DNA of 49,700 nt from the NCBI RefSeq assembly GCF_003334255.1, contig NZ_QOWU01000038.1; one strand, written 5' to 3'. Shown in pieces: positions 19,000-49,700 of the stretch. Within the stretch, counting starts at the first letter, position 1. Each line of letters opens with the position of its first letter. Origin of the DNA: Escherichia coli. Lineage in GTDB: Bacteria > Pseudomonadota > Gammaproteobacteria > Enterobacterales > Enterobacteriaceae. The notes under the pieces are model-generated. The model was not told the origin of the DNA, did not search any database, and saw only the letters and a program-made list of their open reading frames with translations. A program made the translations under genes and the position numbers.

Positions 19000-19244
19000 A
19001 ACCTTCTCCGTTAACCTGGTATTTGTTGCTTGTTGTGTTTGCTTGTTTAAAAAAATGCCGCAAAGCAGCACTGTGCGCAAGCGATTTGGCGGTGAAAAAA
19101 TAAAAAACGTAATGGTGATTGTCGATTGGTGAAAAAAGGTCTGGTGTGAGGATATATTTATTGATGAATCGATAATTTTTAGCGGGTTTTATTGAATGTT
19201 TATATTTTACGGGGGCCAAATTGCTGACAAAGTGCGATTTGTTC

Positions 19245-19390: not shown

Positions 19391-19395
19391 GCTAT

Positions 19396-20148
19396 TCAGA
19401 TAACGTCGATTTCAGCGACTGACGGGTAAATCCAGCTGGGGCGGAAAGGCATACTGTCGATATCGTCGAGCGACGAAACACCAGAAAGCACCAGAATCGT
19501 CTCCAGACCTGCCTGGAAGCCGGCCAGAATATCGGTACGCAGGTTATCGCCGACAATCACCGTTTCTTCCGAATGCGCCTGCATTTTGTTTAATGCTGCG
19601 CGGATGATCCACGGGCTGGGCTTACCAACATAGAACGGTTTGCGCCCGGAGATTTTCTCAATCCCTGCACACAACGCGCCACAAGCGGGATAAAAACCGC
19701 GCCCGTGGGTGTCCGGATTGGTGGCGATAAAACGTGCACCGTTAGCGACGAAATAGGCTGCTTTATGCATCATGTCCCAGTTGTAGGAACGCGTTTCGCC
19801 AACAATCACGAAATCAGGGTTCACATCGGTAATAGTGAAACCGGCTTTGTACAGTTCATGAATCAGTGCGCCTTCGCCCACCACATACGCTTTCTTGCCT
19901 TCCTGGCGACGCAGGAAATCGGCAGTCGCCATCGCAGAGGTATAAAACACGCTGTCAGGTACATCGACACCTGCGGTGGCAAAGCGGTTCGCCAGATCTT
20001 GCCCAGTCTGCGAAGGATAGTTGGTCAGCAACACCAGCGGCAGGCCTTTATCCATAATCCCGTGCAAAAATTCCGCTGCACCCGGTACGGCGACGTTATC
20101 GTGCATCAGCACGCCGTCGATATCGCAAATTACATTTTTAATGGTCAT
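19396..20148 (-). CDS. nagD: HAD-superfamily UMP phosphatase
   Basis: 250 aa; HAD motif I DIDGVL; last gene of the nag cluster. Confidence 0.85.
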   Translation of the reverse strand: MTIKNVICDIDGVLMHDNVAVPGAAEFLHGIMDKGLPLVLLTNYPSQTGQDLANRFATAGVDVPDSVFYTSAMATADFLRRQEGKKAYVVGEGALIHELYKAGFTITDVNPDFVIVGETRSYNWDMMHKAAYFVANGARFIATNPDTHGRGFYPACGALCAGIEKISGRKPFYVGKPSPWIIRAALNKMQAHSEETVIVGDNLRTDILAGFQAGLETILVLSGVSSLDDIDSMPFRPSWIYPSVAEIDVI

Positions 20149-20195
20149 GGACTACCCAGAATATTGACAACAATAAGCGCCACTATAAAAGCACA

Positions 20196-21416
20196 TTAAT
20201 TTTCCAGCAAATGCTGGAGCAAAATACCGTTGAGCATGGCGCGTTTTACCAGCGCAAAAGCGCCGATTGCCGAGCGGTGATCCAGCTCAGAACGTACCAC
20301 CGGCAGATTAGTGCGAAACGCCTTCAGCGCCTGGGTATTAATGCAGCTTTCAATAGCAGGGAGCAGCACTTTATCGGCTTCGGTGATTTCACCGGCAATA
20401 ACAATTTTTTGCGGATTAAATAAGTTGATAGCAATGGCGATGGTTTTACCCAGATGACGACCGACATACTCAATTACTTCCGACGCCAGACTATCGCCTT
20501 TGTTCGCGGCTTTGCAGATAGTTTTGATGGTGCAGTCGTCCAGCGGCACGCGGCTCTGGTAGCCCTGCTTTAACAGATTCAACACCCGTTGTTCAATGGC
20601 AGCGTTGGCAGCGATAGTTTCCAGGCAGCCAAAGTTGCCGCAGTGGCAGCGTTCACCCAGCGGTTCGACCTGAATATGGCCAATTTCACCGACGTTGCCG
20701 TTGCGGCCAATAAAAATGCGCCCGTTAGAGATAATCCCGGCCCCGGTTCCGCGATGGACACGCACCAGAATGGAGTCTTCGCAATCCTGACTTGCACCGA
20801 AGTAGTGCTCCGCCAGCGCCAGACTACGGATATCGTGACCAACGAAACAGGTCACTTTAAAACGTTCTTCCAGAGCTTCTACCAGCCCCCAGTTTTCTAC
20901 CTGAATATGCGGCATGTAATGAATTTTGCCGCTGTCCGGGTCAACAAGCCCTGGCAGGATCACCGAAATCGCGATCAGCTCGCGCAGTTTGCGCTGGTAG
21001 CTATCAATAAACTGAGCAATGGCATTCAACAGGGCATGTTCCAGCGTTTGCTGGGTACGTTCCGGCAGCGGGTAATGTTCTTCTGCCAGCACTTTGCTGC
21101 TGAGATCAAACAGAGTGATGGTGGCGTCATGACGACCAAGCCGTACGCCGATTGCGTGGAAATTGCGGGTTTCGGTGACGATGGAGATAGCGCGGCGGCC
21201 CCCGGTGGAGGCCTGCTGATCAACTTCTTTGATCAGCCCGCGTTCGATAAGCTGACGCGTAATTTTGGTTACGCTGGCGGGGGCAAGCTGGCTTTGCTCG
21301 GCAATCTGAATCCGCGAGATTGGCCCGTACTGGTCAATCAGGCGATAAACCGCCGCGCTGTTAAGCTGTTTTACGAGATCAACATTACCTATCTGAGCTT
21401 GTCCGCCTGGTGTCAT
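20196..21416 (-). CDS. nagC: ROK-family transcriptional repressor of GlcNAc utilisation
   Basis: 406 aa; N-terminal helix-turn-helix plus ROK sugar-kinase-like domain (CHCGNFGCLE zinc motif). Confidence 0.9.
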   Translation of the reverse strand: MTPGGQAQIGNVDLVKQLNSAAVYRLIDQYGPISRIQIAEQSQLAPASVTKITRQLIERGLIKEVDQQASTGGRRAISIVTETRNFHAIGVRLGRHDATITLFDLSSKVLAEEHYPLPERTQQTLEHALLNAIAQFIDSYQRKLRELIAISVILPGLVDPDSGKIHYMPHIQVENWGLVEALEERFKVTCFVGHDIRSLALAEHYFGASQDCEDSILVRVHRGTGAGIISNGRIFIGRNGNVGEIGHIQVEPLGERCHCGNFGCLETIAANAAIEQRVLNLLKQGYQSRVPLDDCTIKTICKAANKGDSLASEVIEYVGRHLGKTIAIAINLFNPQKIVIAGEITEADKVLLPAIESCINTQALKAFRTNLPVVRSELDHRSAIGAFALVKRAMLNGILLQHLLEN

Positions 21417-32808: not shown

Positions 32809-33354
32809 ATGAAAACGATTGAAGTTGATGATGAACTCTACAGCTATATTGCCAGCCACACTAAGCATATCGGCGAGAGCGCATCCGACATTTTACGGCG
32901 TATGTTGAAATTTTCCGCCGCATCACAGCCTGCTGCTCCGGTGACGAAAGAGGTTCGCGTTGCGTCACCTGCTATCGTCGAAGCGAAGCCGGTCAAAACG
33001 ATTAAAGACAAGGTTCGCGCAATGCGTGAACTTCTGCTTTCGGATGAATACGCAGAGCAAAAGCGAGCGGTCAATCGCTTTATGCTGCTGTTGTCTACAC
33101 TATATTCTCTTGACGCCCAGGCGTTTGCCGAAGCAACGGAATCGTTGCACGGTCGTACACGCGTTTACTTTGCGGCAGATGAACAAACGCTGCTGAAAAA
33201 TGGTAATCAGACCAAGCCGAAACATGTGCCAGGCACGCCGTATTGGGTGATCACCAACACCAACACCGGCCGTAAATGCAGCATGATCGAACACATCATG
33301 CAGTCGATGCAATTCCCGGCGGAATTGATTGAGAAGGTTTGCGGAACTATCTAA
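32809..33354 (+). CDS. seqA: Replication-origin sequestration protein
   Basis: 181 aa from [33 protein letters not shown]; the track ORF begins 45 codons upstream. Confidence 0.9.
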
Positions 33355-33379
33355 AACGTTGCAGACAAAGGACAAAGCA

Positions 33380-35020
33380 ATGGCAATCCACAATCGTGCA
33401 GGCCAACCTGCACAACAGAGTGATTTGATTAACGTCGCCCAACTGACGGCGCAATATTATGTACTGAAACCAGAAGCAGGGAATGCGGAGCACGCGGTGA
33501 AATTCGGTACTTCCGGTCACCGTGGCAGTGCAGCGCGCCACAGCTTTAACGAGCCGCACATTCTGGCGATCGCTCAGGCAATTGCTGAAGAACGTGCGAA
33601 AAACGGCATCACTGGCCCTTGCTATGTGGGTAAAGATACTCACGCCCTGTCCGAACCTGCATTCATTTCCGTTCTGGAAGTGCTGGCAGCGAACGGCGTT
33701 GATGTCATTGTGCAGGAAAACAATGGCTTCACCCCGACGCCTGCCGTTTCCAATGCCATCCTGGTTCACAATAAAAAAGGTGGCCCGCTGGCAGACGGTA
33801 TCGTGATTACACCGTCCCATAACCCGCCGGAAGATGGTGGAATCAAATACAATCCGCCAAATGGTGGCCCGGCTGATACCAACGTCACTAAAGTGGTGGA
33901 AGACAGGGCCAACGCACTGCTGGCCGATGGCCTGAAAGGCGTGAAGCGTATCTCCCTCGACGAAGCGATGGCATCCGGTCATGTGAAAGAGCAGGATCTG
34001 GTGCAGCCGTTCGTGGAAGGTCTGGCCGATATCGTTGATATGGCCGCGATTCAGAAAGCGGGCCTGACGCTGGGCGTTGATCCGCTGGGCGGTTCCGGTA
34101 TCGAATACTGGAAGCGTATTGGCGAGTATTACAACCTCAACCTGACTATCGTTAACGATCAGGTCGATCAAACCTTCCGCTTTATGCACCTTGATAAAGA
34201 CGGCGCGATCCGTATGGACTGCTCCTCCGAGTGTGCGATGGCGGGCCTGCTGGCACTGCGTGATAAGTTCGATCTGGCGTTTGCTAACGACCCGGATTAT
34301 GACCGTCACGGTATCGTCACTCCGGCAGGTTTGATGAATCCGAACCACTACCTGGCGGTGGCAATCAATTACCTGTTCCAGCATCGTCCGCAGTGGGGCA
34401 AAGATGTTGCCGTCGGTAAAACGCTGGTTTCATCTGCGATGATCGACCGTGTGGTCAACGACTTGGGCCGTAAACTGGTAGAAGTCCCGGTAGGTTTCAA
34501 ATGGTTTGTCGATGGTCTGTTCGACGGCAGCTTCGGCTTTGGCGGCGAAGAGAGTGCAGGGGCTTCCTTCCTGCGTTTCGACGGCACGCCGTGGTCCACC
34601 GACAAAGACGGCATCATCATGTGTCTGCTGGCGGCGGAAATCACCGCTGTCACCGGTAAGAACCCGCAGGAACACTACAACGAACTGGCAAAACGCTTTG
34701 GTGCGCCGAGCTACAACCGTTTGCAGGCAGCTGCGACTTCCGCACAAAAAGCGGCGCTGTCTAAGCTCTCTCCGGAAATGGTGAGCGCCAGCACCCTGGC
34801 AGGTGACCCGATCACCGCGCGCCTGACTGCTGCTCCGGGCAACGGTGCTTCTATTGGCGGTCTGAAAGTGATGACTGACAACGGCTGGTTCGCCGCGCGT
34901 CCGTCAGGCACGGAAGAAGCATATAAGATCTACTGCGAAAGCTTCCTCGGTGAAGAACATCGCAAGCAGATTGAGAAAGAAGCGGTTGAGATTGTTAGCG
35001 AAGTTCTGAAAAACGCGTAA
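33380..35020 (+). CDS. pgm: Phosphoglucomutase
   Basis: 546 aa from [10 protein letters not shown]..; catalytic serine loop TPSHNP; GGEESAG motif. Confidence 0.9.
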
Positions 35021-35032
35021 ACACATTTAATA

Positions 35033-35066
35033 AAAAAAGGGCGGTCGCAAGATCGCCCTTTTTTAC
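35033..35066 (+). terminator. Intrinsic terminator after pgm
   Basis: aaaaaa-gggcggtc-gcaa-gatcgccc-tttttt. Confidence 0.7.
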
Positions 35067-35084
35067 GTATGACAAACACAGAAT

Positions 35085-35215
35085 TGCCTGATGCGCTACG
35101 CTTATCAGGCCTACGAGGATGGTGCAATATATTGAATTTAAGCGATTTTGTAGGCCGGATAAGGCGTTCACGCCGCATCCGGCAAAAACAACGAACACTT
35201 TGTCAACAAACTGAG
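35085..35215. repeat. BIME/REP cluster
   Basis: gcctgatgcgctacgcttatcaggcctac ... gtaggccggataaggcgttcacgccgcatccggca. Confidence 0.7.
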
Positions 35216-35233
35216 TAGCTCAAGGAAATCCCA

Positions 35234-35728
35234 ATGAAGACCAACAGGAGTCTGGTCGTCATAGTGTCACTAATTACCGCCACATTACTGCTGACTGCAT
35301 GCGCCCAACCTGAACAATCATCATTAGCTGGCGACTGGTTACTGACCCCTAAAGATAAAACCAGAGGATTAACGGGTAGCATTGCGGTAAATATTGCACC
35401 TTTCCGGTGTAAGACAAATTGCCGTGGTGATAACTTACCTGATAATACCCGCCGCTGGCAGTTGTCAGGCGGGAACGAAAAAGAACTTACTTATCTTCAT
35501 AATATGTCAGCACAAGAAAAGGTCGGTTTAAATCCCGGTTGGCAATGCTACACCTCATTTTTTATGCGGGTTTGCCAGGGCAAGCCCGGCACTCGACCGA
35601 TAGTCAATGAGGATTATGTCAGCGAAAGCGGATTTTTTGGCTCGATGATGCATGTCGGGATTATTGAGTTACGACGCTGCCAGTCAGAAAATTGCCAGCA
35701 AGAATTGAAAGCGATAAATACACATTAA
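35234..35728 (+). CDS. ybfP: Small lipoprotein
   Basis: 164 aa; signal peptide with lipobox LTAC. Confidence 0.7.
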   Translation: MKTNRSLVVIVSLITATLLLTACAQPEQSSLAGDWLLTPKDKTRGLTGSIAVNIAPFRCKTNCRGDNLPDNTRRWQLSGGNEKELTYLHNMSAQEKVGLNPGWQCYTSFFMRVCQGKPGTRPIVNEDYVSESGFFGSMMHVGIIELRRCQSENCQQELKAINTH

Positions 35729-35768
35729 AATAGTGAGTCCGGGAATGAAACCCGGACCTGAACATGTC

Positions 35769-36419
35769 TTATTGCGTGAATGTTTCTTTCATTTGATACT
35801 GCATTTCCCAGAGTTCAGTAAGCGAAATAACTTTTCTTGTTCTTGCTTCTTCACTTTGTACCCATAAGAAAGGGTAGAACGTGAAGGCTTCCGTTGCCGA
35901 TAATTTTATTACGTCTTCTCGCCATTGCTGCCATCGTACATTTTCATAGAAGGTATCTAAATCACCGGATAATGCCCACTGAAGAAACTCAGAATATCCA
36001 ACTTCCAGACTTTCCCAATTCAGCGTATCTGGCGCAAAATAATAAACGCAGCCAGTATCTTCCCCAAGATCGCCACCATTAAGAGCAAAAATTCCCCCTG
36101 CGACATCGTCAGCGATGGGTAAAGCCCGCACGCCTGCGAATTCAGGGCGTTGTGTCCAACTTACTGGATCTCGTGGCAACCGGGGGTGACCAGATCCTGC
36201 TATGCGTAACCAACCATTATCAATCAGCAGACCTCCGGAGCCATAGACAAGCGCACCCATCGGTGATTTTGTTGTCACCTCTAATTGATAAAGTGCGGTT
36301 TCGGCTAAATCTTTATTAACCGGTAAGAGTTCGGTATGGTTTGTGGCGTCTTTTAACCAGTTCTGGATTATTGGCCAGGCTGAATCTTCAGTATTTACTA
36401 ACTGATTCATTTCACGCAT
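35769..36419 (-). CDS. ybfG: Conserved hypothetical protein
   Basis: 216 aa from ATG 36419 (MREMNQLVN..) with AAGGAG upstream; the track ORF adds 36 codons. The symbol is from position only. Confidence 0.5.
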   Translation of the reverse strand: MREMNQLVNTEDSAWPIIQNWLKDATNHTELLPVNKDLAETALYQLEVTTKSPMGALVYGSGGLLIDNGWLRIAGSGHPRLPRDPVSWTQRPEFAGVRALPIADDVAGGIFALNGGDLGEDTGCVYYFAPDTLNWESLEVGYSEFLQWALSGDLDTFYENVRWQQWREDVIKLSATEAFTFYPFLWVQSEEARTRKVISLTELWEMQYQMKETFTQ

Positions 36420-36542
36420 CGCTACTTGCTCCTTGTGTGCTACGGTGTCATTTATGATGAGGAATTGTATGGAACATTTTTTAAATATTAAGTTCCTTAT
36501 ATTTGAATAAAAAATGACTTTATCCATACATTGCCACTTTTT

Positions 36543-36681
36543 TCAAAGCATAAACCGATACCCAATACCGGTTTCAGTAATAAAATGGCGAGGCCGGGCC
36601 GGATCCTGTTCCAGTTTTTGTCGCAGATGCCCCATATAATTACGCAAATAGTTGCTGTGTTCGATCGCGTTTAGACCCTAC
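36543..36681 (-). pseudogene. ybfI: Fragment of a response-regulator gene: paralogous copy of the kdpE 3' end (last ~45 codons plus stop)
   Basis: About 90% nucleotide identity by eye with 40878-41016; it translates in frame to ..NAIEHSNYLRNYMGHLRQKLEQDPARPRHFITETGIGYRFML*, against the KdpE C-terminus ..NAVEHSHYLRIYMGHLRQKLEQDPARPRHFITETGIGYRFML*. No start codon or N-terminal receiver domain. Confidence 0.8.
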
Positions 36682-36727
36682 ATCTGCCGGATGCGGCATA
36701 AATAACGAACTATTTGCCAACAAACAG

Positions 36728-36756
36728 AAAGGGCGATCATTCAATCGCCCTTTTTT
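36728..36756. terminator. Hairpin terminator downstream of potE
   Basis: aaa-gggcgat-cattca-atcgccc-tttttt; REP-like gccggatgcggc just upstream. Confidence 0.55.
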
Positions 36757-36767
36757 ACTTTGTTTTA

Positions 36768-38087
36768 TTAACCGTGTTTATTTTTCAGTTCAAAGCGTGG
36801 TGATACCAGACCATACAGTGTCCAACCAAGGAAGGTCACGATGGAACCGTACAGCATGGCTTCTTCCCCGGATGAGTACAGCGCATAAAAGCTATACATC
36901 GCGCCAACAAAAGCAACAAAGTTTGCAACTTTCGCTTTTGAGGGGGGCACATTAGCTACCTTCTGAATAATGACTAATGCCGCCATTGACAGAATATACG
37001 GAATGATATTGGTCACCACGGCCAGGTTAACCAGCACGTTGAACTGACTGTTTAGCGACGGGCTAATGGTCATCAGTGCCAATCCACTCTGAATAATCAC
37101 AATGGTCAACATTCCCTGCACCGGTGCATCCACTTTGGTTACACGGGAGAAAATTTTAGGGAAGTAGCCTTCATCAGATGAAGATTTAAACACCTGGGCA
37201 ATGGTGAACTGCCAGCCAAGTAGCGAACCGCAGCAGGACATCACCATCAGCGCCATAATGACTTTACCCACTTCCGGCGTGAACATCTGCGCGAAGGCCA
37301 GACCAAATGGTGCCGTTGAATTTGCCAGCTCCATATTTGGCACAATCCCGGCAATCACGTTGGTGGAGACGATATAAATCACCGCCGCACCTAACGTACC
37401 GCCGAGTACCGCGATTGGCACATTACGTTCCGGGTTTTCCACTACATCAGTATTCGCACACGCAGACTCCAGACCAAGAAAAGCCCACAGCGTCATAGCG
37501 ATGGAAGAACCTACCGCACTGAAGAACGGTGCATGATGCGGATTCCAGGAATCAACGTACAGCGTCGGGCTAAACCAGAACCAGCCAATAATGCACAGAC
37601 CGACGACCGGAATAATGACCCCCCACACGGTAATGCTACTGATTTGCCCGGTAATGCGCGCACCACCAAAGTTAGCCACGGTACAAATCCACAGCACCCC
37701 GATGGTCGCAAGACCAATCTGCACTGGCGACAAACTCGCGCCGAGCAGTTCGGTGCCGTAACCAACCGCCGAAATAGCAATCGCGACGTTAGCAATCAGC
37801 AGTGAGACGCCGTAGGTATAGTTCGCCATAAAGTTACCGGATTTACCGAAAGCATACTCGGCATAACCGCCCATACCGCCTGATTTACGGCTGAACATAC
37901 CGCATTTTGCGAATGCCCATGCCAGTGCCATTGAGCCTACGGCTGTCACCAGCCAGGAGATAATTGAGATTGTCCCGACTTCGGCAAGCTTTGTCGGCAG
38001 CATGATGATACCGGAGCCCATCATGTTGACCATCGTCAGTATGGTTAACTGAACGACGCCCATTTTGTTCGATTTAGCCTGACTCAT
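36768..38087 (-). CDS. potE: Putrescine-ornithine antiporter (APC family)
   Basis: 439-aa polytopic membrane protein; start overlaps the speF stop. Confidence 0.9.
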   Translation of the reverse strand: MSQAKSNKMGVVQLTILTMVNMMGSGIIMLPTKLAEVGTISIISWLVTAVGSMALAWAFAKCGMFSRKSGGMGGYAEYAFGKSGNFMANYTYGVSLLIANVAIAISAVGYGTELLGASLSPVQIGLATIGVLWICTVANFGGARITGQISSITVWGVIIPVVGLCIIGWFWFSPTLYVDSWNPHHAPFFSAVGSSIAMTLWAFLGLESACANTDVVENPERNVPIAVLGGTLGAAVIYIVSTNVIAGIVPNMELANSTAPFGLAFAQMFTPEVGKVIMALMVMSCCGSLLGWQFTIAQVFKSSSDEGYFPKIFSRVTKVDAPVQGMLTIVIIQSGLALMTISPSLNSQFNVLVNLAVVTNIIPYILSMAALVIIQKVANVPPSKAKVANFVAFVGAMYSFYALYSSGEEAMLYGSIVTFLGWTLYGLVSPRFELKNKHG

Positions 38088-40282
38088 AATTTTTCCCCTT
38101 TCAACAGGGTGCTTTGCGCATCACGAGGCTTGATGACATAGCACCAAACTTGCTTACGACCATCATGTTCTTCGATATAGACACCCTGCAGCTCCGGTGC
38201 AAAACCTGGCAGCAGGTTGATCCCTTCTTCCAGAGCGCTGAAGTAACGCAGAACAGCACCACCCCAGATTTCACCCGGAACAACACACAGCACACCCGGA
38301 GGATAAGGAAGCGCACCTTCGGCAGCGATACGGCCTTCTGCATCCGGCAGACGAACCAGTTCCACTTCACCGCGTAAATAGGCGTAGTTGGCTTCTTGCG
38401 GATTCATGCTGACGCGTGGGAAGTGCTCCTTACGGAACATCTCTTTTTGCAGTTGTTTCACGTTGTGGCGGGCATACAAATCATGCATTTCCTGACACAA
38501 CTGACGCAGGGTATAACCGGCGTAGCGCTCTTCATGCTGTTTGTAGATGGAAGGTAGCACTTCTGCTAATGGCGCGTCGGACTCAAGCAGTTTTTCGAAG
38601 CGTACCAGCAGGGCAACAAGTTGCTGAAGTTTGGCCATATCTTCTGCCGGAGTCAGCAGGAAGAGGATGGAGTTAAGATCGCATTTTTCCGGCACTACGC
38701 CATTTTCGCGCAGGAAGTTAGCAAGAATCGTCGCGGGTACACCGAACGCTTCATATTCGCCGTTACGTGCATCAATACCTGGGGTTGTCAGCAACAGTTT
38801 GCATGGATCGACAAAGTATTGATTCTCTGCATAGCCTTCAAAAGAATGCCAGTGTTCCCCTGGTACAAACTGGAAGAAGCGCAGATCAACCGCAATTTGC
38901 GCTGTTTCATACGACTGCCAGGGTTTACCATCCACCAGTTCAGGTACGAACGGACGAATATGCTGACAGTTATCGAGGATCAGTTTGCGGGCATTAATGC
39001 CATTTACCACACAATCCATCCACATATTACGACCGCTGACACCTTCATGCATTTTGGCGTTGATATCCAGTGCGGCAAACAGCGGATAGAACGGGCTGGT
39101 GGAGGCGTGCATCATAAAGGCGTTGTTCATGCGTTTGTGCGGTACATAACGCTGTTGCCCTTTGATGTGGCTGTCTTTTTTATGAATTTGTGAAGTCTGA
39201 GAAAAACCAGCCTGTTGTTTATGCACAGATTGCGTAACCAGAATACCCGGATCGTTCTCATTAAGATCCAGCAACAGCGGCGAACAGTCCGCCATCATCG
39301 GAATAAACTGTTCATAGCCGACCCATGCTGAGTCAAACAGGATGTAGTCACACAGATGACCAATTTTATCCACCACTTGGCGGGCGTTATAAATCGTACC
39401 GTCGTAGGTGCCTAACTGAATCACAGCGAGGCGGAAAGGACGAGCCTCTTTTGCCCGCTGCGGTGCGACTTCCGCGATCAGCTCACGCAGGTAACTTTCT
39501 TCAAAACAGTGCGCATCAATGCCACCGATAAAGCCATACGGGTTACGTGCCGTTTCCAGATAAACCGGTGTTGCACCAGCCTGTAGCAACGCTCCGTGGT
39601 GGTTAGATTTGTGGTTATTGCGATCAAACAGCACCAGATCACCCGGTGTTAGCAGGGCGTTTAAAACCACTTTGTTAGAAGATGAAGTGCCATTTAAAAC
39701 GAAGTAGGTTTTATCGGCATTAAACACTTTTGCCGCATGTTGCTGTGCAATGCATGGCGCGCCTTCGTGAATCAGCAGATCGCCCATCGCTACGTCGGCG
39801 TTGCACAAGTCGGCACGGAACAGCGCCTCACCAAAGTATTCCACAAACTGATTCCCCGCCGGATGGCGACGGAAAAATTCGCCGCCCTGATGACCAGGGC
39901 AATCAAACGCGCTGTTACCTTGATTGACATAATCGACCAGTGCGCGGAAGAAAGGTGGGCGCAGTTGAGTTTCATAATGGCTGGCAGCGGTTTCTAACTG
40001 GCGACCATAAAATTCTCGTCGCGATTCGCAATTCTCAAAGACACCCGAAATACGGGGCAAATACTCTGCGGGTACACGTTCTTGATTTTCAGTAGCAATA
40101 AATACCGGGATGCCATAACCCGTGGCATCGATTTCATCGAGTTTTCCGCATGTAACATCGTTGAGCGATAAAACTATTGCCGCCACATCGATATTACGAC
40201 TTTCATTAATGTAGATACATTCTCGCTGCGTGGTAAAACAGTCCGGGCAAGAATCACTAACCGCAATTTTTAATTTTGACAT
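38084..40282 (-). CDS. speF: Inducible ornithine decarboxylase (PLP-dependent)
   Basis: 732 aa; fold-type I PLP decarboxylase with N-terminal wing domain. Confidence 0.9.
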   Translation of the reverse strand: MSKLKIAVSDSCPDCFTTQRECIYINESRNIDVAAIVLSLNDVTCGKLDEIDATGYGIPVFIATENQERVPAEYLPRISGVFENCESRREFYGRQLETAASHYETQLRPPFFRALVDYVNQGNSAFDCPGHQGGEFFRRHPAGNQFVEYFGEALFRADLCNADVAMGDLLIHEGAPCIAQQHAAKVFNADKTYFVLNGTSSSNKVVLNALLTPGDLVLFDRNNHKSNHHGALLQAGATPVYLETARNPYGFIGGIDAHCFEESYLRELIAEVAPQRAKEARPFRLAVIQLGTYDGTIYNARQVVDKIGHLCDYILFDSAWVGYEQFIPMMADCSPLLLDLNENDPGILVTQSVHKQQAGFSQTSQIHKKDSHIKGQQRYVPHKRMNNAFMMHASTSPFYPLFAALDINAKMHEGVSGRNMWMDCVVNGINARKLILDNCQHIRPFVPELVDGKPWQSYETAQIAVDLRFFQFVPGEHWHSFEGYAENQYFVDPCKLLLTTPGIDARNGEYEAFGVPATILANFLRENGVVPEKCDLNSILFLLTPAEDMAKLQQLVALLVRFEKLLESDAPLAEVLPSIYKQHEERYAGYTLRQLCQEMHDLYARHNVKQLQKEMFRKEHFPRVSMNPQEANYAYLRGEVELVRLPDAEGRIAAEGALPYPPGVLCVVPGEIWGGAVLRYFSALEEGINLLPGFAPELQGVYIEEHDGRKQVWCYVIKPRDAQSTLLKGEKL

Positions 40283-40539
40283 TTTTCATCTCTTTATTTT
40301 AGGTAATAGCAGGTCCTCAATTTCTCGAATGAGAAATCGATCGTGCCGGAAAAAAGCAAAGTTACCCCGCTGATAAATAAATCAGGTAGATTGCTTTTTT
40401 CAGAATGCAGAAACCCTTACCAGTCAGGTGGCTGATAATACAAGGGTTAACAGAGAATGAGCACTGCGGAATACAGGCATATGCCTGTAATACAGAGAGT
40501 CAGGAAGACCTGTACGCTGAAGTGCCCTTAGTCGGTAGA

Positions 40540-40644
40540 CTAACGGGCATTGAAGAAGTGAAAGTCGAAGCTATTGCGATGAGCAAACTTCATAATATGA
40601 GTTGTCCGCCTTATATGGGGCATAGTGCGGCTGTTATTTTCCAT
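40540..40644 (-). CDS. speFL: Ornithine-sensing leader peptide of the speF operon
   Basis: 34-codon ORF MENNSRTMPHIRRTTHIMKFAHRNSFDFHFFNAR*, not in the ORF track, in the AT-rich leader about 260 nt upstream of speF. Confidence 0.8.
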   Translation of the reverse strand: MENNSRTMPHIRRTTHIMKFAHRNSFDFHFFNAR

Positions 40645-40812
40645 TTAATTTACCTTTCCTGATGTGAATGAAGGTGAAGATATTCTATCCAGGAAATACG
40701 GTTGAACTGTGAAGGTGATCAATAAAAAATGATCAATCTTAATTTATTTAATGATGAGCTTTTTACTCAGTAATATAAAATATTGAATTGTTATTTTTGT
40801 GTGTTGTTTAAG

Positions 40813-40842
40813 ATAAAAAGCCGTATTTATTATTACGGCTTT
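40813..40842 (-). terminator. Intrinsic terminator after kdpE
   Basis: Minus strand: aaagccgta-ataataaa-tacggct-ttttatctt. Confidence 0.65.
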
Positions 40843-40877
40843 AATTAATAAAAGGCAGGCTGTATTAAAATTAATAT

Positions 40878-41555
40878 TCAAAGCATAAACCGATAGCCAA
40901 TACCGGTTTCAGTAATGAAATGGCGTGGGCGGGCGGGATCCTGTTCCAGTTTTTGTCGCAGATGTCCCATATAAATACGCAAATAGTGACTGTGTTCGAC
41001 CGCGTTTGGCCCCCACACCTGGTTAAGGAGCTGGCGCTGGGTGAGTACTTTTCCGGCATTGTTGAGCAGCACCGCCAGCAGGCGGAACTCAATTGGTGTG
41101 AGATGCACCTCTTCCTCACCCCGGTGAATCACGCGGGCGGCTAAATCGACGGTAACATCGGAAAATTTTACCAGCGGATCGGGCGCGGTGGTGGCAGAGT
41201 GGCGGCGTAATGCGACGCGCAGACGGGCCTGCAATTCGCCAATGCCAAACGGCTTACTCAGATAATCATCCGCTCCGGCATCCAGCGCGGCGATTTTGTC
41301 GCTCTCTTCGCTGCGTGCGGAAAGCACAATCACCGGCACCGCGCTCCACTGGCGCAGGTCGCGGATAAACTCAATCCCATCACCATCGGGCAGGCCGAGA
41401 TCGAGAATAATCAAATCTGGCTTACGGGTTGCCGCTTCCAGCAAGCCGCGTTGCAGCGTTTCGGCCTCAAAGACGCGCATCCCGTCGCCCTCCAGCGCCG
41501 TGCGCAGAAAGCGACGAATAGCCTGTTCATCTTCAACAATCAGAACGTTTGTCAC
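40878..41555 (-). CDS. kdpE: OmpR-family response regulator of the kdp operon
   Basis: 225 aa; receiver domain (LIILDLGLPDGDG) plus winged-helix; GTG start 41555-41553 overlaps the kdpD stop (ATGTGA). Confidence 0.9.
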   Translation of the reverse strand: MTNVLIVEDEQAIRRFLRTALEGDGMRVFEAETLQRGLLEAATRKPDLIILDLGLPDGDGIEFIRDLRQWSAVPVIVLSARSEESDKIAALDAGADDYLSKPFGIGELQARLRVALRRHSATTAPDPLVKFSDVTVDLAARVIHRGEEEVHLTPIEFRLLAVLLNNAGKVLTQRQLLNQVWGPNAVEHSHYLRIYMGHLRQKLEQDPARPRHFITETGIGYRFML

Positions 41556-44236
41556 ATATCCTCATGAAATTCTTCAAGTTCAGGGGCAGTTTGCTGGGGA
41601 AGTGTAACACGAAAACAGGCACCACCTTCCGGTCGGTTGAACGCGGTAATAGTGCCCCCGTGTACATCCACTATCGCCCGACAAATTGCCAGTCCAAGCC
41701 CTACCCCCGGTACTGCCGACTCTTTATTCCCGCGAGCAAACTTATCAAATATCGTCTGCTCCTGGCCTGGCGGAAGACCGGGGCCGTTATCCCAGACATC
41801 CAGTTGTAGATTTTCGCCCTCAACGTGGGCATCGATACCAATTTCGGCCTGCGCACCCGCATATTTCACCGCGTTCTCCAGCAGATTAATCAGCACCCGT
41901 TCAAAGAGTGGCCCGTCAACGTGGATTAAGGTCAGCGGTTCTGGCAGAGAAAGATTGATGGGCGACGATAAACCCGGTTCCAGCATTTGCAGCGCGCTGC
42001 CGACTACTTCTTCCAGCGTTAACCACTCTTTCTTCAAATTAAAGCCGCCGGACTGAATTCGCGCCATATCCAGTAGATTATTCACCAGTCGGGTAGTGTT
42101 CAGCACATGCTGACGGATCTCGCTGGCCTGGCGGGCGTGGGGTGATCCTTCGCTTGCCAGATCGAGCGTTAAGATTTCTGCCTGACCAAACAGCACCGTA
42201 AGCGGCGTGCGTAAATCATGCGAAAGCGCCGCCAGCAGGGCGTTGCGGATCTGTTCACGTTCGCTTGCCATCCGCGCCTGTTCTTCGCTGGCGGTTAGCG
42301 TCAGCCGCTCAAGGGCATTGGCGACTAACAGCGTAAACGTCTCCAGCAGGCGCTGCTGTTCCGGGATCATCAACTGGCGCAGATTCCCCGGCTCCACCAC
42401 CACCAGCCCGTAGGTTTTCTCGCCGCTTTTTAGCGGCAAAATCTGGTACGGTACACCGGGTAACGTGTCGGTGCCCGCGCCCGCAGGCAGGCCTTTATCA
42501 AAACTCCACTGCGCGATGGCATCGTCCCACGGCGTCATTCCTTGCGGATGTGTTAACGGCTGCAATTTACCGTTGTCATCGGGCAACAACACCTGACTGC
42601 GGGCATGAAACGTGGAGGCAATAAATTGTTCGCTGGTGGCAGCGATATCCTGCGGACTGCGGCCCACCGCCAGAGCTTTCGACATTTCATATAAGTGCCG
42701 TGTGCGTTGCTCGCGGTAACGGGCTACCCGCGCCTGATAACGCACGCCAGCAGTAAGGTTCCCGATCACCAGCCCGACGGTTAACATCACCGCGAAGGTC
42801 AGCAGATATTGCACATCAGAGACGGCGAGCGTGCCGCGTGGGGCGATAAAAAAGAGATCGAAACTCACTACATTAATGACGGTGGCAACCACTGAAGGCC
42901 AGCGTCCATAAAATAGCGCCACCACCACCACGCCAAGCAGATACAGCATCACCAGGTTGGCGGCATCAAACGCCATCAGCCACTGCATGGCAATTAAGGT
43001 GATAACGGCGCATAACGCGGCGGCAACCACGCATCCCTGAATTTGTACACGCCACTTGTCTTTAAAAGAGCGGTTATCCGGCGCGTTGTTAATCGTGCGG
43101 GCGGGTGGTTCATCAAGCGCGACCAGCACCTGATCGAGATCGGGGGCGATGCGCGCCAGTCGGTCAGCAAACGTTTCCCGACGCCACCAGCGGCGCGAGG
43201 CCGGGCGACCGAGAATAATCTTGCCGAGATTATGTTCACGGGCATAACGCACTACCGCTTTCTCTTCCGCTGGATCAGAAAGTGTTGCCGTCTCCGCGCC
43301 CAGTTCCTGCGCCAGACGTAAGGCGCTGAGAATTGCCCGACGTTTTTTTTCCGGTAAGCGGTGCAGGGCAGGGGTTTCAACATACACCGCGTGCCAGACG
43401 CTACCCAGCCGTGACTCCAGCCGCGCCGCTGCGCGGACCAGTTTTTCGCTGCCGGTGTTATGGCCGATGCATAAAAGGATCGCGTCGCGCGTGTGCCACA
43501 CTTTCTCTTCGCCAGGATGCCCCCGCCAGGCGCGCATTTGCTCATCAACGCGATCGGCAGTACGGCGCAGTGCCAGTTCGCGCAGGGCGATCAGATTACC
43601 TTTGCGGAAAAAATGTTCAATGGCGCGCTCCGCCTGCCCGGCAATATAGACTTTGCCTTCTTTCAGCCGCTGGCGCAGATCGTCCGGGGGCAAGTCCACC
43701 AGCACCACGTCGTCGGCGGCATCGAAAAAAGGATCGGGCACGGTTTCCCGTACCTGAATTCCGGTGACGCCGCTGACCACATCATTCAGACTTTCCAGAT
43801 GCTGAACGTTGACGGTAGTGAAAACATCAATGCCAGCTTCCAGCAGTTCTTCGATATCCTGCCAGCGTTTGGGATGACGGGAACCTGGCGCATTACTGTG
43901 CGCCAGTTCGTCCATTAAGATCAGCGCCGGGCGGCGGGCGAGGGCGGCATCGAGATCAAACTCGCTGATATGCCGCCCACGGTACGCCTGGCGTTTTAAC
44001 GGCAGAACAGCCAGCCCTTCCAGCATGGCGGCGGTATCTTTTCGCCCGTGGGTTTCTACCACGCCAACCACAATATCCAGCCCTTGCGCCCGCAGTCGCT
44101 GGGCTTCTGCCAGCATCGCCCAGGTCTTCCCGACGCCTGCACAGGCACCGAAGAAAACTTTCAGCTTCCCCCGATGCGGCGCGGCAGTTTGTTCCAGCAG
44201 ACGATCGGGGTCGGGACGTAAGGGTTCGTTATTCAT
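41552..44236 (-). CDS. kdpD: Sensor histidine kinase KdpD
   Basis: Start refined to ATG 44236 ([16 protein letters not shown].., 894 aa); N-terminal KdpD domain with Walker [10 protein letters not shown], four TM helices, H-box LSHDLRTPL, HATPase_c. Confidence 0.9.
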
Positions 44237-44801
44237 CAAGTTTATCCAGCGCCAGATTGAGTTCAACAATGTTGACAACCGGCTGGCCGATATATTTCAC
44301 CTGCGGTTGTTGGCTGTATTTTGCGATCAGTTGCGTGAGCTGTTCAACGCTGAGATTACGCGCTTTCGCCACGCGTGGGATTTGCCAGGCCGCCGCTTGC
44401 GGGGTGATATTATTGTCCAGCCCGCTTGCCGATGCCGTCACCAGTTCAACCGGAACGCTCGCGCTGGCATCCGGGTTAGCGGCCCGTAATGCAGCAACGC
44501 GTGCGGCTATTAGTTTATCCAGCTCAGGGTTACTGACCGCCAGATTGCTCCCGCCAGAAGCCTGTGGATTATAGGGCATTTCTGCCGTTGCCGACGGGCG
44601 ACCATGAAAATAGCCGTTGCCGGTAAAATTCTGCCCGATTAATGCCGAACCGCGCACCGTATCACCTTCACGAATCAACGAACCATTGGCCTGCCAGGGA
44701 AACCACCATTGCCCCAGTACGGTGGTCAGCAGCGGGTAAACGCCGCCAGTAATCAATAACAGAAAGATAAATGTTGATAATGCCGGACGTAATCCACTCA
44801 T
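44229..44801 (-). CDS. kdpC: K+-transporting ATPase subunit C
   Basis: 190 aa from [27 protein letters not shown]. Confidence 0.9.
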
Positions 44802-44809
44802 GGTAAACC

Positions 44810-46858
44810 TCACACCAGACCGCAAACGGTCAGCAGTAAATCAATGACTTTGATACCGATAAACGGCACCAGCAGCCCACCCAGACCGTAAATCCATAAG
44901 TTACGGCGCAACATGGCAGAAGCGGTAAGCGGTTTATAACTCACGCCTTTTAACGCCAGGGGAATCAAAAAGACGATAATCAAGGCGTTGAAAATCACCG
45001 CACTGAGGATTGCGGAGTCGGGCGAATGCAGGCACATGATGTTCAGCGCATTTAACTGCGGATACGTTGCCGCGAATGCCGCCGGAATAATGGCGAAGTA
45101 TTTCGCCACATCGTTGGCAATGCTGAAGGTGGTCAGCGAGCCACGGGTCATCAGCATCTGTTTGCCAATGTGCACCACCTCGATCAACTTGGTCGGGTTA
45201 GAGTCGAGATCGACCATATTGCCCGCCTCTTTCGCCGCCTGGGTGCCGGAGTTCATCGCCACCGCGACATCTGCCTGCGCCAGCGCCGGAGCATCGTTGG
45301 TGCCGTCGCCGGTCATCGCTACCAAACGACCTTCCGCCTGATACTGACGGATCAATGCCAGCTTGGCCTCCGGTGTCGCTTCGGCGAGAAAATCATCGAC
45401 ACCCGCTTCCGCAGCAATCGCGGCGGCAGTCAGACGGTTATCGCCGGTAATCATCACCGTTTTAATGCCCATTTTGCGCAGCTGGGCGAAGCGCTCTTTA
45501 ATACCGCCTTTGACGATATCTTTCAGCGCAATAACGCCCAGCACACGAGAACCTTCCACCACCACCAGCGGCGTGGCTCCCTGACGCGCAACCTGATCGA
45601 CTTTTTGATCAACATCGGTAGGGAAGTGACCACCGTTAGCCTCAACATGGCGACGAATGGCATCGACAGAACCTTTACGGATCATGCGGTTGTCGATGTT
45701 GATCCCGCTCATCCGGCTTTGCGCAGTAAACGGTACAAAGGTGGCATGGAGCGACTGCACATCGCGCTCGCGCAGGTTAAAACGCTGCTTGGCGAGGATC
45801 ACAATACTGCGGCCTTCCGGCGTTTCATCAGCCAGCGAAGCCAGTTGTGCGGCGTCAGCCAGCGTTTTTTCATCCACGCCCTGCGCGGGGATAAACTCCG
45901 ACGCCTGACGGTTACCGAGTGTGATGGTGCCGGTTTTATCCAGTAGCAGAACGTCAACGTCACCTGCCGCTTCAACTGCACGTCCGCTGGTGGCAATCAC
46001 ATTCGCGCCTAGCATCCGGCTCATCCCGGCGACGCCGATCGCTGACAACAGGCCGCCAATAGTGGTTGGGATCAGACAGACCAGCAGCGCCACCAGTACC
46101 GTTACGCTGACTGCATTACCGCCCCACGCGGAAAACGGCCACAGCGTGGCGGTTGCCAGTAAAAAGACGATAGTCAGGGCAATCAGCAGAATGGTCAGGG
46201 CAATTTCGTTCGGCGTTTTGCGTCGCTGTGCGCCTTCCACCATCGCGATCATCCGATCCAGAAATGTCTCGCCGGGGTTAACGCTACACTCAATCACCAG
46301 CCAGTCAGAAAGAATACGCGTGCCGCCGGTGACGGAGGCAAAATCGCCGCCGGATTCACGGATCACCGGTGCCGATTCCCCGGTGATGGCGCTTTCATCG
46401 ACCGATGCACCCCCTTCAATAACTTCACCATCGCAGGGGATAATATCGCCAGCTTCTACCAGTACGATATCGCCTTTACGAAGTTGGTCGGCAGGAACTT
46501 TGTCCGCCGCAGCGCCATATTTCGGCTCACGCAGCTTGCGGGCAAAGGCAGTTTTTTTCACCCCTTTCAGACTGTTGGCCTGCGCTTTACTGCGGCCTTC
46601 TGCCAGCGCCTCGGCGAAATTAGCGAACAGTACGGTGATCCACAGCCAACCGCTAATGGCCGCGCTAAACAGCGCATTGCCGGGCATCGCACCGCTTGCC
46701 ATCGCGATGCTAATACAGGTGGTCAGCAGACTGCCGATCCAGACGATAAACATCACCGGATTGCGCCATTGCGCCTGCGGGTTTAATTTTTTCACCGCTT
46801 CTTTCAGCGCCTGAACGACAAGTGTTGGTTCGAATAGCGCCAGTTGTTTACGACTCAT
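44810..46858 (-). CDS. kdpB: K+-transporting P-type ATPase catalytic subunit B
   Basis: 682 aa; phosphorylation motif DKTGTIT; TGDN and [10 protein letters not shown] hinge motifs. Confidence 0.95.
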
Positions 46859-48746: not shown

Positions 48747-48955
48747 GCAAAAGCCATGATTTAACTAATGTTTAGTATTAATTTAACTTTTGTGTAACTT
48801 AATTACAGGATGAATGTAAATAAACCATCAATAAGCAAAAATAAGTGGTCGGATGAGTAGTAAAATTACACAAAAGGCGGTACTATTTTCATCAGATAAA
48901 CAAATTCATTTTTCCGGTGCCATTCACCGGGTAGATACAAAAGGGGGAGAAAAGT

Positions 48956-49162
48956 ATGGAACTCTACAGAGAATATCCTGCATGGCTTATCTTTTTACGC
49001 CGTACTTATGCGGTTGCAGCGGGCGTTCTGGCGCTGCCTTTCATGCTTTTCTGGAAAGACCGCGCCCGCTTTTACAGCTACCTGCATCGCGTCTGGTCGA
49101 AAACCAGCGATAAACCGGTGTGGATGGATCAGGCCGAAAAGGCAACTGGTGATTTTTATTGA
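48956..49162 (+). CDS. ybfA: Small membrane protein
   Basis: 68 aa, [33 protein letters not shown]..; GGAG-rich sequence upstream. Confidence 0.7.
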
Positions 49163-49186
49163 TTGCTGAGTTTTGAATACATTGAA

Positions 49187-49217
49187 AACCGCCAGCGGAA
49201 ACGCTGGCGGTTTTTTG
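49187..49217 (+). terminator. Intrinsic terminator after ybfA
   Basis: aaaa-ccgccagcg-gaaa-cgctggcgg-tttttt. Confidence 0.8.
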
Positions 49218-49404
49218 TATCAGGAAGATGTTCAGAGGAATATTTAGACATCGTTATACCAATCGAAACATATATTCATGAAATATATATAAATATTTTC
49301 CTAATTGTTCTTATCTGACAGATATCTCACTTAAGGCTTTCTTATAAATCTGTAGGGTTTCGCCTGTCAGCAGACAAATAACCCGATAAAACAAGGATGA
49401 GCAG

Positions 49405-49700
49405 ATGAGCGGAAAACCGGCGGCGCGTCAGGGCGACATGACGCAGTATGGCGGTAGCATTGTCCAGGGTTCAGCCGGGGTACGCATCGGTGCCCCCACC
49501 GGCGTGGCCTGTTCGGTGTGCCCCGGCGGGGTGACGTCCGGCCATCCGGTCAATCCGCTGCTCGGTGCAAAGGTCCTTCCCGGTGAAACCGACATCGCCC
49601 TGCCCGGCCCGCTGCCGTTCATTCTCTCCCGCACCTACAGCAGTTACCGGACAAAAACGCCCGCGCCGGTGGGGAGCCTCGGCCCCGGCTGGAAAATGCC
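49405..49700 (+). CDS. rhsC: 5' end of an Rhs-family polymorphic toxin gene (runs off the window)
   Basis: ATG 49405 with AAGGA upstream; product MSGKPAARQGDMTQYGGSIVQGSAGVRIGAPTGVACSVCPGG..LPFILSRTYSSYRTKTPAPVGSLGPGWKM, the conserved Rhs N-terminus; sharp rise in GC content; no stop before the window end. Confidence 0.8.
   Translation, partial: MSGKPAARQGDMTQYGGSIVQGSAGVRIGAPTGVACSVCPGGVTSGHPVNPLLGAKVLPGETDIALPGPLPFILSRTYSSYRTKTPAPVGSLGPGWKM

Follow-up and report, generated by a model that had tools for sequence, protein, structure and literature searches.

In the stretch of Escherichia coli DNA analyzed here (49,700 nucleotides, referred to as the window), the speFL-speF-potE module lies between intact kdpE and a second copy of the kdpE 3′ end. 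This arrangement raises the question of which event left the second kdpE end behind, and whether that event was the one that placed speF-potE next to kdp, as the original prediction proposed.

The second kdpE end is the pseudogene ybfI

A repeat search within the window identified an ungapped direct repeat of 145 nt (36542-36686 versus 40877-41021; spacing, 4335), whose copies are identical at 131 of 145 positions (90.3%) in our own alignment; by chance alone, a match of this kind is expected ~1e-48 times within the window. The predicted repeat of the kdpE end in the same orientation is therefore real, although it measures 145 rather than 139 nt, starting 1 nt outside the stop codon and ending at 36686. 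As seen by repeat search and alignment, copy R1a (40877-41021, minus strand) is the 3′ end of kdpE itself (whole gene, 40878-41555). Copy R1b (36542-36686, minus strand; stop codon, 36543-36545) carries the last 47 of the 225 kdpE codons plus the stop. Its frame is kept, in frame with the kdpE stop, as had been claimed, but a premature TAG (36678-36680) occupies its third codon, and its translation reads QM*GLNAIEHSNYLRNYMGHLRQKLEQDPARPRHFITETGIGYRFML*. The two copies flank speFL, speF and potE, all on the minus strand, as predicted.

This second end is already known. The annotation of K-12 MG1655 places a pseudogene, ybfI (b4636; 716721-716870), between ybfG and potE, which is the same feature in the same place as the window fragment, and the PGAP label in E. 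coli C and other strains is winged helix-turn-helix domain-containing protein, incomplete, missing N-terminus. The K-12 record names only the pseudogene and is silent on the direct repeat with kdpE around speF-potE and on its origin; searches of the literature library used here for ybfI and this locus returned nothing. When compared with Pfam, ybfI matched positions 42 to 77 of the 77-position Trans_reg_C model (PF00486; E = 6.9e-8), a partial domain, and it has neither a receiver domain nor the intact open reading frame of a functional gene. Thus, ybfI is a pseudogene and not a paralogous regulator.

The 14 differences between ybfI and kdpE comprise 8 synonymous and 6 nonsynonymous changes, and in the window copy the last 31 codons differ by synonymous changes only. 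Together with the absence of stops from the 44 C-terminal codons, and with a weak sigma-70-like match that overlaps the ybfI stop codon and points towards ybfG, this pattern is what might be expected if ybfI were kept by selection, whether it encodes a small winged-helix peptide or serves ybfG as a promoter or 5′ region. We consider such a function scarcely credible, since the synonymous differences match polymorphisms in functional kdpE alleles, the premature stop is common to both lineages that carry the fragment, and the promoter-like matches are at chance level (5 found versus 3.5 expected). Moreover, the copy of the second lineage has a 1-nt deletion and further changes, with decay spread along the fragment, and the two copies differ at 12 of 144 sites (8.3%) versus 4% for the surrounding locus. 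An Rfam scan of 33000-45000 gave no family at the gathering score.

The run of synonymous changes had also hinted that ybfI might derive from a diverged, once-functional foreign kdpE. This origin was rejected because the sites concerned are polymorphic in functional E. coli kdpE alleles (33C, 57G and 126G, the shared, nonunique differences from the window kdpE, also segregate there), and it is countered further by the decay all along the second lineage's copy. By identity, ybfI is closest to E. coli kdpE alleles (88 to 90%), followed by those of E. albertii (85%) and Citrobacter (~80%).

The fragment ends at a REP arm within a mosaic block

As predicted, the fragment ends at a REP element: a REP motif search found a single arm, GCCGGATGCGGCA, at 36686-36698 (plus strand). 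Similarity to kdpE ends at CTG (36684-36686), overlapping the start of the arm by at most 3 nt, and the arm as matched shares only the final G (36686) with kdpE-derived sequence. This abrupt loss of homology, with few bases common to both partners, is that of an illegitimate (microhomology) junction. The motif GCCGGATGCGGCA occurs 9 times in the window versus 0.19 expected, the GCCGGATGCGGCG-type palindromic unit is present in many extragenic copies, as in REP/BIME elements, and queries containing REP matched 6 to 47 places per E. coli genome. While only one arm stands at the ybfI breakpoint, REP1 (35150-35184) is complete.

Next to the arm lies a short motif, X, whose copy b (36699-36725, repeat R2b together with the REP arm) has a second copy upstream of ybfP. 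The match (36693-36724 versus 35180-35211, same strand) covers 27 of 32 positions, with an E value of ~1e-3 in a small search space. REP1 and copy a of motif X (35185-35211) together form repeat R2a (35150-35211). The third element is the terminator hairpin T(b) after potE (36726-36757, repeat R3b), terminator-like on both strands (bidirectional) and of the E. albertii type; its partner T(a) after pgm (hairpin, 35039-35058, repeat R3a) shares the segment 35033-35114 with REP2 (35086-35114). The window therefore has three direct-repeat pairs, namely, the kdpE 3′ end (R1), the REP arm with motif X (R2), and the terminator (R3), and the second copies of all three are contiguous, forming a 216-nt mosaic block at 36542-36757.

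Between the kdpE-end repeats, the only annotated genes are those of the potE-speF-speFL cassette (36768-40644, minus strand), comprising speFL (40540-40644), speF (38084-40282) and potE (36768-38087), with no integrase or recombinase. The bracketed DNA does not have the features of a transposon or insertion sequence with a target-site duplication: there are no inverted repeats at its ends and no transposase, and the repeat measures 145 nt against the 2 to 14 bp of such duplications. On the other side of ybfI lies a second cassette (35234-36419; G+C, 44 to 45%) made of ybfP (35234-35728, plus strand) and ybfG, a DUF2625 gene (35769-36419, minus strand). No close orthologs of YbfG were found outside E. 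coli, and no recombinase gene is present in or beside either cassette.

The kdpE-pgm spacer is a hot spot for alternative cargo

The Enterobacterales comparison covered 80 listed loci, with none from E. fergusonii, Salmonella or the cryptic Escherichia clades, and in 73 of the 80 both kdpE and pgm were within reach. Among the loci listed, kdpE normally converges directly on pgm; 55 of the 73 lack speF, with gaps from 35 nt to 9.7 kb that hold unrelated cargo. One expectation of the original prediction, that kdpE would abut ybfG where speF-potE is absent, failed, since in the listed taxa without the module it is pgm that abuts kdpE. At least 18 of the loci listed, from at least 10 genera, have speF-potE between kdpE and pgm and no second kdpE fragment; fragment-free modules next to kdpE were seen in E. 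albertii, Citrobacter, Pseudocitrobacter, Kluyvera, Enterobacter, Lelliottia, Cedecea, Atlantibacter and Phytobacter. The spacer between kdpE and REP1 is very short, at 9 nt. In K. indica, a plain deletion ends 4 nt past the kdpE stop. Overall, this comparison shows an ancestral kdpE-pgm spacer made of a few bases, REP1, a spacer, REP2 and a terminator, which acts as a hot spot for alternative cargo.

Counts within E. coli were taken over 5426 complete genomes. In ~3164 of these, speF-potE adjoins kdpE without the kdpE fragment, ~1828 carry the fragment, and ~6% lack speF-potE. The fragment was found only adjoining ybfG, and ybfP was also present in every locus of this long haplotype that was read far enough; a 1,661-bp segment (35067-36727) with ybfI, ybfG and ybfP is absent from the short-haplotype strains examined.

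These distributions bear on the event that was originally predicted. Had the first insertion of speFL-speF-potE beside kdp, in an enterobacterial ancestor, left both kdpE ends, the scar would have been lost in other lineages. The repeats do bracket the module, the predicted difference in composition is present (G+C of 49 to 50% in the module, below the 55 to 57% of the kdp and pgm flanks), and the distribution of the module is patchy, as for an acquired cassette. Against this, the module sits at kdpE free of the fragment in the other genera and in the ~3164 E. coli genomes, the fragment has its nearest kdpE alleles in E. coli instead of lying basal to Escherichia, and it was found only together with the E. 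coli-specific ybfG-ybfP. This reading is largely refuted, and we regard it as highly improbable. The fragment is a genuine rearrangement scar, as predicted, but the evidence does not support reading it as the mark of speF-potE's arrival beside kdp.

Several of at least five haplotypes are related by the repeats

At least five structural haplotypes occupy the E. coli kdpE-pgm hot spot, and removing the interval between the copies of one repeat pair converts the window into another of them. Without the R1 interval, the window becomes haplotype Y (strains CUWW10 and GF4-3); without the R2 interval, it becomes S′ (R32_14_1F and N96); and without the R3 interval, it becomes S, the short haplotype. 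In the S′ locus L090, the alignment with the window breaks off exactly at 36686 and picks up at 35214. Since the L090 haplotype diverges from the window (91% identity), it is independent of the window haplotype, and recent derivation from it is contradicted. The long haplotype itself exists in two lineages, 96% identical overall, whose REP/ybfI junctions are identical and which both carry the premature stop as well as 12T, 34A and 47A.

In type-0 strains, the same REP pair (BIME) and the same terminator fill a bare kdpE-pgm spacer. The idea that type 0 of E. coli is a deletion derivative was considered and rejected: a potE remnant like that of K. indica was sought, and the sole candidate, a 7-nt likeness (CGGTTAA), is unconvincing.

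In CUWW10, precisely the 4,335 bp that separate the kdpE-end repeats are missing. Among its nine flanking proteins, the six nearest (YbfF, SeqA, Pgm, YbfG, KdpE and KdpD) are identical to those of E. coli C, and YbfP, KdpC and KdpB differ. The same exact loss of the 4,335-bp module was seen in two strains; thus, the 145-nt repeats still act as substrates for deletion of speF-potE, through crossovers that look like ordinary recombination between short homologies. CUWW10 and GF4-3 were considered as relics of a precursor and rejected, because their ybfG-ybfP cassettes nest in the window-type clade (98.9 to 99.5% identity versus 95.8% between the two long lineages) and the CUWW10 flanking proteins are mostly those of E. 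coli C. KL53 arose by a different event, an IS1-associated deletion. The E. coli strains in which kdpE adjoins ybfG are therefore only recent deletion derivatives of the window-type haplotype.

A divergent patch covers the leader of the module (39700-40876, minus strand); it begins just past the kdpE stop codon and reaches ~580 nt into speF. Its identity to the counterpart in short-haplotype E. coli, E. albertii and Citrobacter is only 72 to 80%, and the window type was present in 1709 of the 5426 complete E. coli genomes versus ~1828 with ybfI. Being xenologous and, for the most part, linked to the long haplotype, the patch may reflect a second import event. At the coarse scale of 300-nt windows, it had seemed to include the kdpE 3′ end; this was rejected, as finer segmentation starts the patch right after the stop.

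Discussion

The origin that we favor, and consider probable, is that ybfI is a nonfunctional kdpE relic, left in the E. coli lineage when a single illegitimate, REP-adjacent join fused a haplotype carrying speF-potE to one carrying ybfG-ybfP. One partner would be S′, which in the orientation of kdpE reads kdpE, leader, speFL, speF, potE, T(b), X, REP1 and onward to pgm, and which is observed as a haplotype in its own right. The other would be a pre-existing haplotype Y, reading kdpE, ybfG, ybfP, X, REP1 and onward to pgm. DNA of the two would have recombined through one homologous crossover and one illegitimate junction, a homology-facilitated illegitimate recombination in which the REP1 arm of S′ was presumably joined to codon ~178 of the Y kdpE, with an overlap of at most 3 nt (CTG on the plus strand; CAG in kdpE orientation). 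The expected product is kdpE, the speF module, T(b), X(b), the REP arm joined to the last 145 nt of kdpE, ybfG, ybfP, X(a), REP1, REP2, T(a) and pgm. The join probably happened once, because two diverged lineages have both the junction and the stop mutation in common, and ybfI would then have decayed neutrally. Either of S′ and Y could have been the donor, as the data fit both directions. One of these directions is a modified form of the original idea, in which a speF-potE haplotype would have been imported into a kdpE-ybfG strain and have displaced the resident kdpE end.

What counts against a single illegitimate join is that the Y genomes observed are recent deletion derivatives only, and none older than the long haplotype was found. 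The lack of close YbfG orthologs beyond E. coli likewise leaves its cassette without a traced source. Motif X is short, and the ending of both cassettes in X beside REP1 is left unaccounted for; the simple form of the single join also does not predict the xenologous leader patch linked to the long haplotype.

The same final sequence is predicted by an in situ tandem duplication from kdpE codon ~178 to REP1, with a REP-adjacent join, followed by replacement of one cassette through allelic recombination. Formally, the series kdpE 3′ end, cassette, X and REP occurs twice in tandem, and REP elements are classical join points of enteric tandem duplications. This route seems unlikely to us, as it needs two events rather than one, and identical multikilobase tandem copies are unstable and usually lost before replacement could occur. 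Moreover, no genome with the same cassette twice turned up in collection searches, which were not designed to detect one.

The window could also be read as a two-cassette array built by a site-specific system, with an attachment site between kdpE and REP1, an end site at X-REP and a dedicated recombinase, such as a REP-associated tyrosine transposase. Depending on the haplotype, any of four sequences directly follows the kdpE stop codon, both window cassettes end with X adjoining REP1, and the gap cargo is diverse in many genera. However, the cassettes have no recombinase gene in or beside them, the breakpoint of the kdpE fragment lies inside coding sequence with an overlap of only 3 nt or less, and the cassettes of E. 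albertii, Citrobacter and Enterobacter do not end in X; the clustering at the stop is explained by selection for intact kdpE together with the 9-nt spacer to REP1, as the K. indica deletion illustrates. A system of this kind is quite improbable. We give equally little credence to the proposal that the bases between the kdpE stop and REP1 are a REP/BIME-directed cassette-exchange site with X-REP as the end site. Such a site would take up speF-potE, ybfG-ybfP and, in other genera, other cargo, and the window would be an array of two cassettes, integron-like without a linked integrase.

Among known systems, the single illegitimate join resembles homology-facilitated illegitimate recombination, which was reportedly shown experimentally in naturally transformable bacteria by de Vries and Wackernagel in 2002. 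As there, a homology anchor and a microhomology end of a few bases would add nonhomologous DNA plus a scrap of the donor's flanking gene, but here the process is reconstructed from the sequence of one ancient junction. In Salmonella and E. coli, Shyamala, Schneider and Ames (1990) reportedly found REP/BIME elements at the joins of chromosomal tandem duplications. The window resembles those duplications in having a REP exactly at the novel join and two copies of the locus in tandem, whereas the classical cases have REP-REP joins and identical units, in place of a REP arm joined to kdpE codon ~178 and different cassettes. Islands with attL and attR likewise have an intact target gene at one end, a direct displaced 3′ fragment at the other, and excisable DNA between. 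Unlike them, this locus has no integrase, most carriers of the module lack the repeats, and the far breakpoint is a REP arm; it is not an integrase-mediated island flanked by att repeats.

The E. coli short-haplotype terminator resembles a hybrid of T(b) and T(a). Such a hybrid, a further point against the favored origin, would fit a long form ancestral in E. coli, with S arising by deletion; the order of events within E. coli may thus have been different.

The importance of the ybfI scar is largely confined to annotation and local genome history, where it offers a clear natural example of a scrap of a neighboring gene carried by an illegitimate join beside a REP. E. coli is polymorphic for the module itself, an inducible ornithine decarboxylase and antiporter that serves as the model of ornithine sensing by SpeFL, and K-12-like strains can lose it by a precise deletion from one kdpE end to the other. 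The K-12 speF leader region is unusual and xenologous, which calls for caution when regulatory results from K-12 are generalized to other E. coli.

Two copies of the kdpE 3' end flank speFL-speF-potE

The window is E. coli chromosome: over 35500-41700, strains including E. coli C and ML35 match it at 100% identity. A repeat search revealed an ungapped direct repeat (R1) of 145 nt and 90% identity, with copies at 36542-36686 and 40877-41021 and a spacing of 4335; a separate alignment gave 131 of 145 identical positions, and the chance expectation is ~1e-48. The original prediction of a repeat with ~90% identity therefore held, although its length had been read as ~139 nt. As also predicted, speFL, speF, and potE lie between the two copies, and the fragment breaks off at a REP element: similarity starts 1 nt beyond the kdpE stop codon and stops at CTG (36684-36686), where the REP arm GCCGGATGCGGCA (36686-36698) begins. 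The fragment keeps the kdpE frame, as had been proposed, but its translation (QM*GLNAIEHSNYLRNYMGHLRQKLEQDPARPRHFITETGIGYRFML*) is interrupted by a premature TAG at the third codon. It differs from kdpE by 8 synonymous and 6 nonsynonymous changes, and its Pfam Trans_reg_C match covers only the last 36 model positions; a functional fragment is the less likely reading. The same fragment is already annotated in K-12 MG1655 as the pseudogene ybfI (b4636), and in other strains PGAP labels it an incomplete winged-helix protein without an N terminus; no discussion of the locus was found in the literature searched. The ybfI repeat is real and statistically unambiguous, a known pseudogene and an ordinary rearrangement scar, whose evolutionary reconstruction is tidy and of local interest only.

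The module adjoins kdp without a scar in many lineages

Of 5426 complete E. coli genomes, only 1828 cover at least 80% of a 341-nt query spanning the fragment with its flanking sequence; the remainder match at kdpE alone. In O157:H7, APEC O18, and O111, the order is pgm, potE, speF, speFL, and kdpE, with pgm and potE directly convergent, and none of ybfP, ybfG, and ybfI was found in these three. The junction of this short haplotype (S) is present in 3164 genomes. The long (window-type) and short forms differ by a 1,661-bp segment (35067-36727) with an imperfect copy of a terminator hairpin on either side; in the short form, there is a single copy.

Beyond E. coli, scanning one genome per species with KdpE as the anchor yielded at least 80 loci; both kdpE and pgm could be located in 73 of the 80 listed. 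Among these listed matches, speFL-speF-potE fills the gap in 18 of 73 loci (E. albertii, two Citrobacter species, Pseudocitrobacter, Kluyvera, Enterobacter, Lelliottia, Pluralibacter, Phytobacter, Cedecea, and Atlantibacter), and no second kdpE fragment, ybfG, or ybfP was found in any of the 18. These loci and the fragment-free E. coli genomes indicate, therefore, that the module adjoins kdp in many lineages without a scar. Hence, the proposal suggested by the flanking copies, that the fragment is the literal scar left when speF-potE first came to lie beside kdp, is contradicted by the haplotype distribution inside and outside E. coli. Whether kdpE abuts ybfG in relatives lacking speF-potE had been posed as a check; in the loci listed, kdpE abuts pgm instead. 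By G+C content, kdpDE stands at 57%, pgm at 55%, speF and potE at 49 to 50%, the leader at 36%, and ybfG and ybfP at 44 to 45%.

Among the same matches, speF is absent from 55 of 73 loci, with kdpE-pgm gaps of 35 nt to 9.7 kb; the larger gaps are occupied by unrelated genes, for example a chaperone-usher fimbrial operon or genes for sugar utilisation. In Klebsiella indica (L016, 10672-10760), the last 23 potE codons, with 100% amino acid identity to E. coli PotE, lie 4 nt past the kdpE stop and are followed by REP-like sequence and pgm; this remnant is a plain deletion footprint, with speFL, speF, and most of potE removed. We also observed that the gap is a hot spot of variable cargo across Enterobacterales (L036, L038, L044, L052, L070, and L071; ~10670 to 13000-20400). 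From a reading of the ORF translations, not a family search, L036 seems to carry a chaperone-usher fimbrial operon, L038 genes for a sugar kinase, an epimerase, and an ABC transporter, and L044 an ABC transporter together with a PLP-dependent enzyme and a LysR-type regulator, among other cargo.

A mosaic block and its proposed origin from two haplotypes

In the orientation of kdpE, the window reads kdpE, leader, speFL, speF, potE, terminator T(b), motif X(b), REP arm, the 145-nt kdpE end, ybfG, ybfP, motif X(a), REP1, spacer, REP2, terminator T(a), and pgm. Besides R1, two further direct-repeat pairs were identified: R2 (REP arm plus motif X, ~43 nt, with 27 of 32 matches in its core) and R3 (terminator, ~32 nt). 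The second copies of R1, R2, and R3 adjoin one another and make up a 216-nt mosaic block at 36542-36757. Excising the interval between the copies of a pair yields existing haplotypes exactly: R1 gives Y (2 genomes, ybfG directly after intact kdpE), R2 gives S' (2 genomes, with potE, T(b), X, a complete REP1, REP2, T(a), and pgm, without ybfG and ybfP), and R3 gives S. The alignment of the S' strain L090 to the window breaks at 36686, which is the fragment breakpoint, and restarts at 35214. The REP pair and terminator of the ybfP-pgm spacer recur in the bare kdpE-pgm spacer of type 0, in which kdpE converges directly on pgm without any speF-potE (308 complete E. coli genomes).

The simplest account of this arrangement is one illegitimate, REP-adjacent join of the S' and Y haplotypes. 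DNA of the two would recombine by that join at one side and by a homologous crossover at the other, a type of event we take to be homology-facilitated illegitimate recombination. Either Y DNA with a donor kdpE tail would have been added behind potE, or S' DNA with an intact kdpE ahead of a resident kdpE tail. A tandem duplication followed by cassette replacement, which would likewise leave two kdpE ends, is less likely, as is a dedicated cassette-exchange system.

Several features of the individual haplotypes were also noted. The window potE terminator (36726-36757) matches that of E. albertii (L007, ~14860-14924) with one hairpin mismatch. The single terminator of short-haplotype E. coli consists of the pgm-side hairpin (compare window 35033-35066) joined to the potE-side flank, a form that would be the expected product of deletion between the two terminator copies at the shared TAAAAAAGGGCGAT. 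In type 0 (L089, 3380-3553; L006, 10676-10857), the REP pair and terminator alone separate kdpE from pgm; the representative strain SCPM-O-B-8794 also lacks speFL-speF-potE. ybfG (DUF2625; 35769-36419) is an intact ORF of 216 codons in the window, has a pseudogene label in K-12, and is truncated to 132 amino acids in a second long lineage (L091-L094, 8001-8399); outside E. coli, its nearest homologs (Erwinia, Kosakonia, and Pantoea) are at most 56% identical.

The leader region is divergent

A patch from the kdpE stop codon to ~580 nt inside speF (39700-40876) is 96 to 100% identical between the two long lineages, versus 72 to 80%, with many indels, against E. albertii, Citrobacter, and the short-haplotype and S' forms of E. 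coli; over the same stretch, E. albertii matches short-haplotype E. coli at 85% with few gaps. The speF regulatory region (kdpE-speFL spacer, speFL, speFL-speF spacer, and speF 5' end) has two very different E. coli alleles; that of K-12 and the window is 72 to 80% identical to the allele of O157, B2, and O111 strains, and is an outgroup to the latter together with E. albertii. We read the window-type patch as xenologous, with an unsampled donor as its source. Of the 5426 complete genomes, 1709 carry it, compared with 1828 for the long haplotype, to which its linkage is therefore extensive but incomplete. Such a patch lends some support to the addition of S' DNA, which would be a refined form of the original prediction, and the present data are compatible with both directions. 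In short-haplotype and S' strains (L003, 8706-8840; L090, 10253-10384), PGAP calls a small ORF overlapping speFL a "hypothetical protein" and once a "TonB-dependent receptor," calls that probably reflect misannotation of the divergent leader allele.

The repeats as deletion substrates

In CUWW10, precisely the 4,335 bp between the R1 repeats are missing, with the crossover inside the first 19 nt of the repeat. The six closest flanking genes (ybfF, seqA, pgm, ybfG, kdpE, and kdpD) have protein products identical to those of E. coli C, whereas YbfP, KdpC, and KdpB are not. GF4-3 has the structure of CUWW10 in a different genetic background. The ybfG-ybfP cassettes of both nest within the window-type clade (98.9 to 99.5%, versus 95.8% between the long lineages), and the two strains were rejected as ancestral relics on this ground. 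They are recent independent deletions, and the R1 repeats are active. In KL53 (one genome), the module was lost by an IS1-associated deletion, an IS1 copy lying between ybfG and kdpE in the expected place of speFL-speF-potE-ybfI (L088, 4261-4958). IS1 is active at the locus: further strains carry it within kdpE, next to kdpE, or in the speF leader (matches H54, H55, and H98).

Origin and age of ybfI

ybfI is closest to E. coli kdpE alleles (88 to 90%), followed by E. albertii (85%) and Citrobacter (~80%). The second long lineage is 96% identical to the window across 11 kb, with a truncated YbfG at 87 to 88%, and has the same REP junction, premature stop, 12T, 34A, and 47A. The other shared ybfI differences from window kdpE (33C, 57G, and 126G) are polymorphic among functional E. 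coli kdpE alleles. Between the two lineages, ybfI differs at 12 of 144 sites, and the second-lineage copy has a 1-nt deletion. These patterns suggest that ybfI arose from one event in the E. coli lineage, using an ordinary E. coli kdpE allele, and that the event happened before the two long lineages diverged, with roughly neutral decay since.

Elsewhere in the window, 48943-49700, downstream of ybfA, aligns with Rhs-bearing O157 and O111 and not with the B2 strain APEC O18, in which ybfA is directly followed by ybgA and phrB, reflecting presence/absence variation of the rhsC element.
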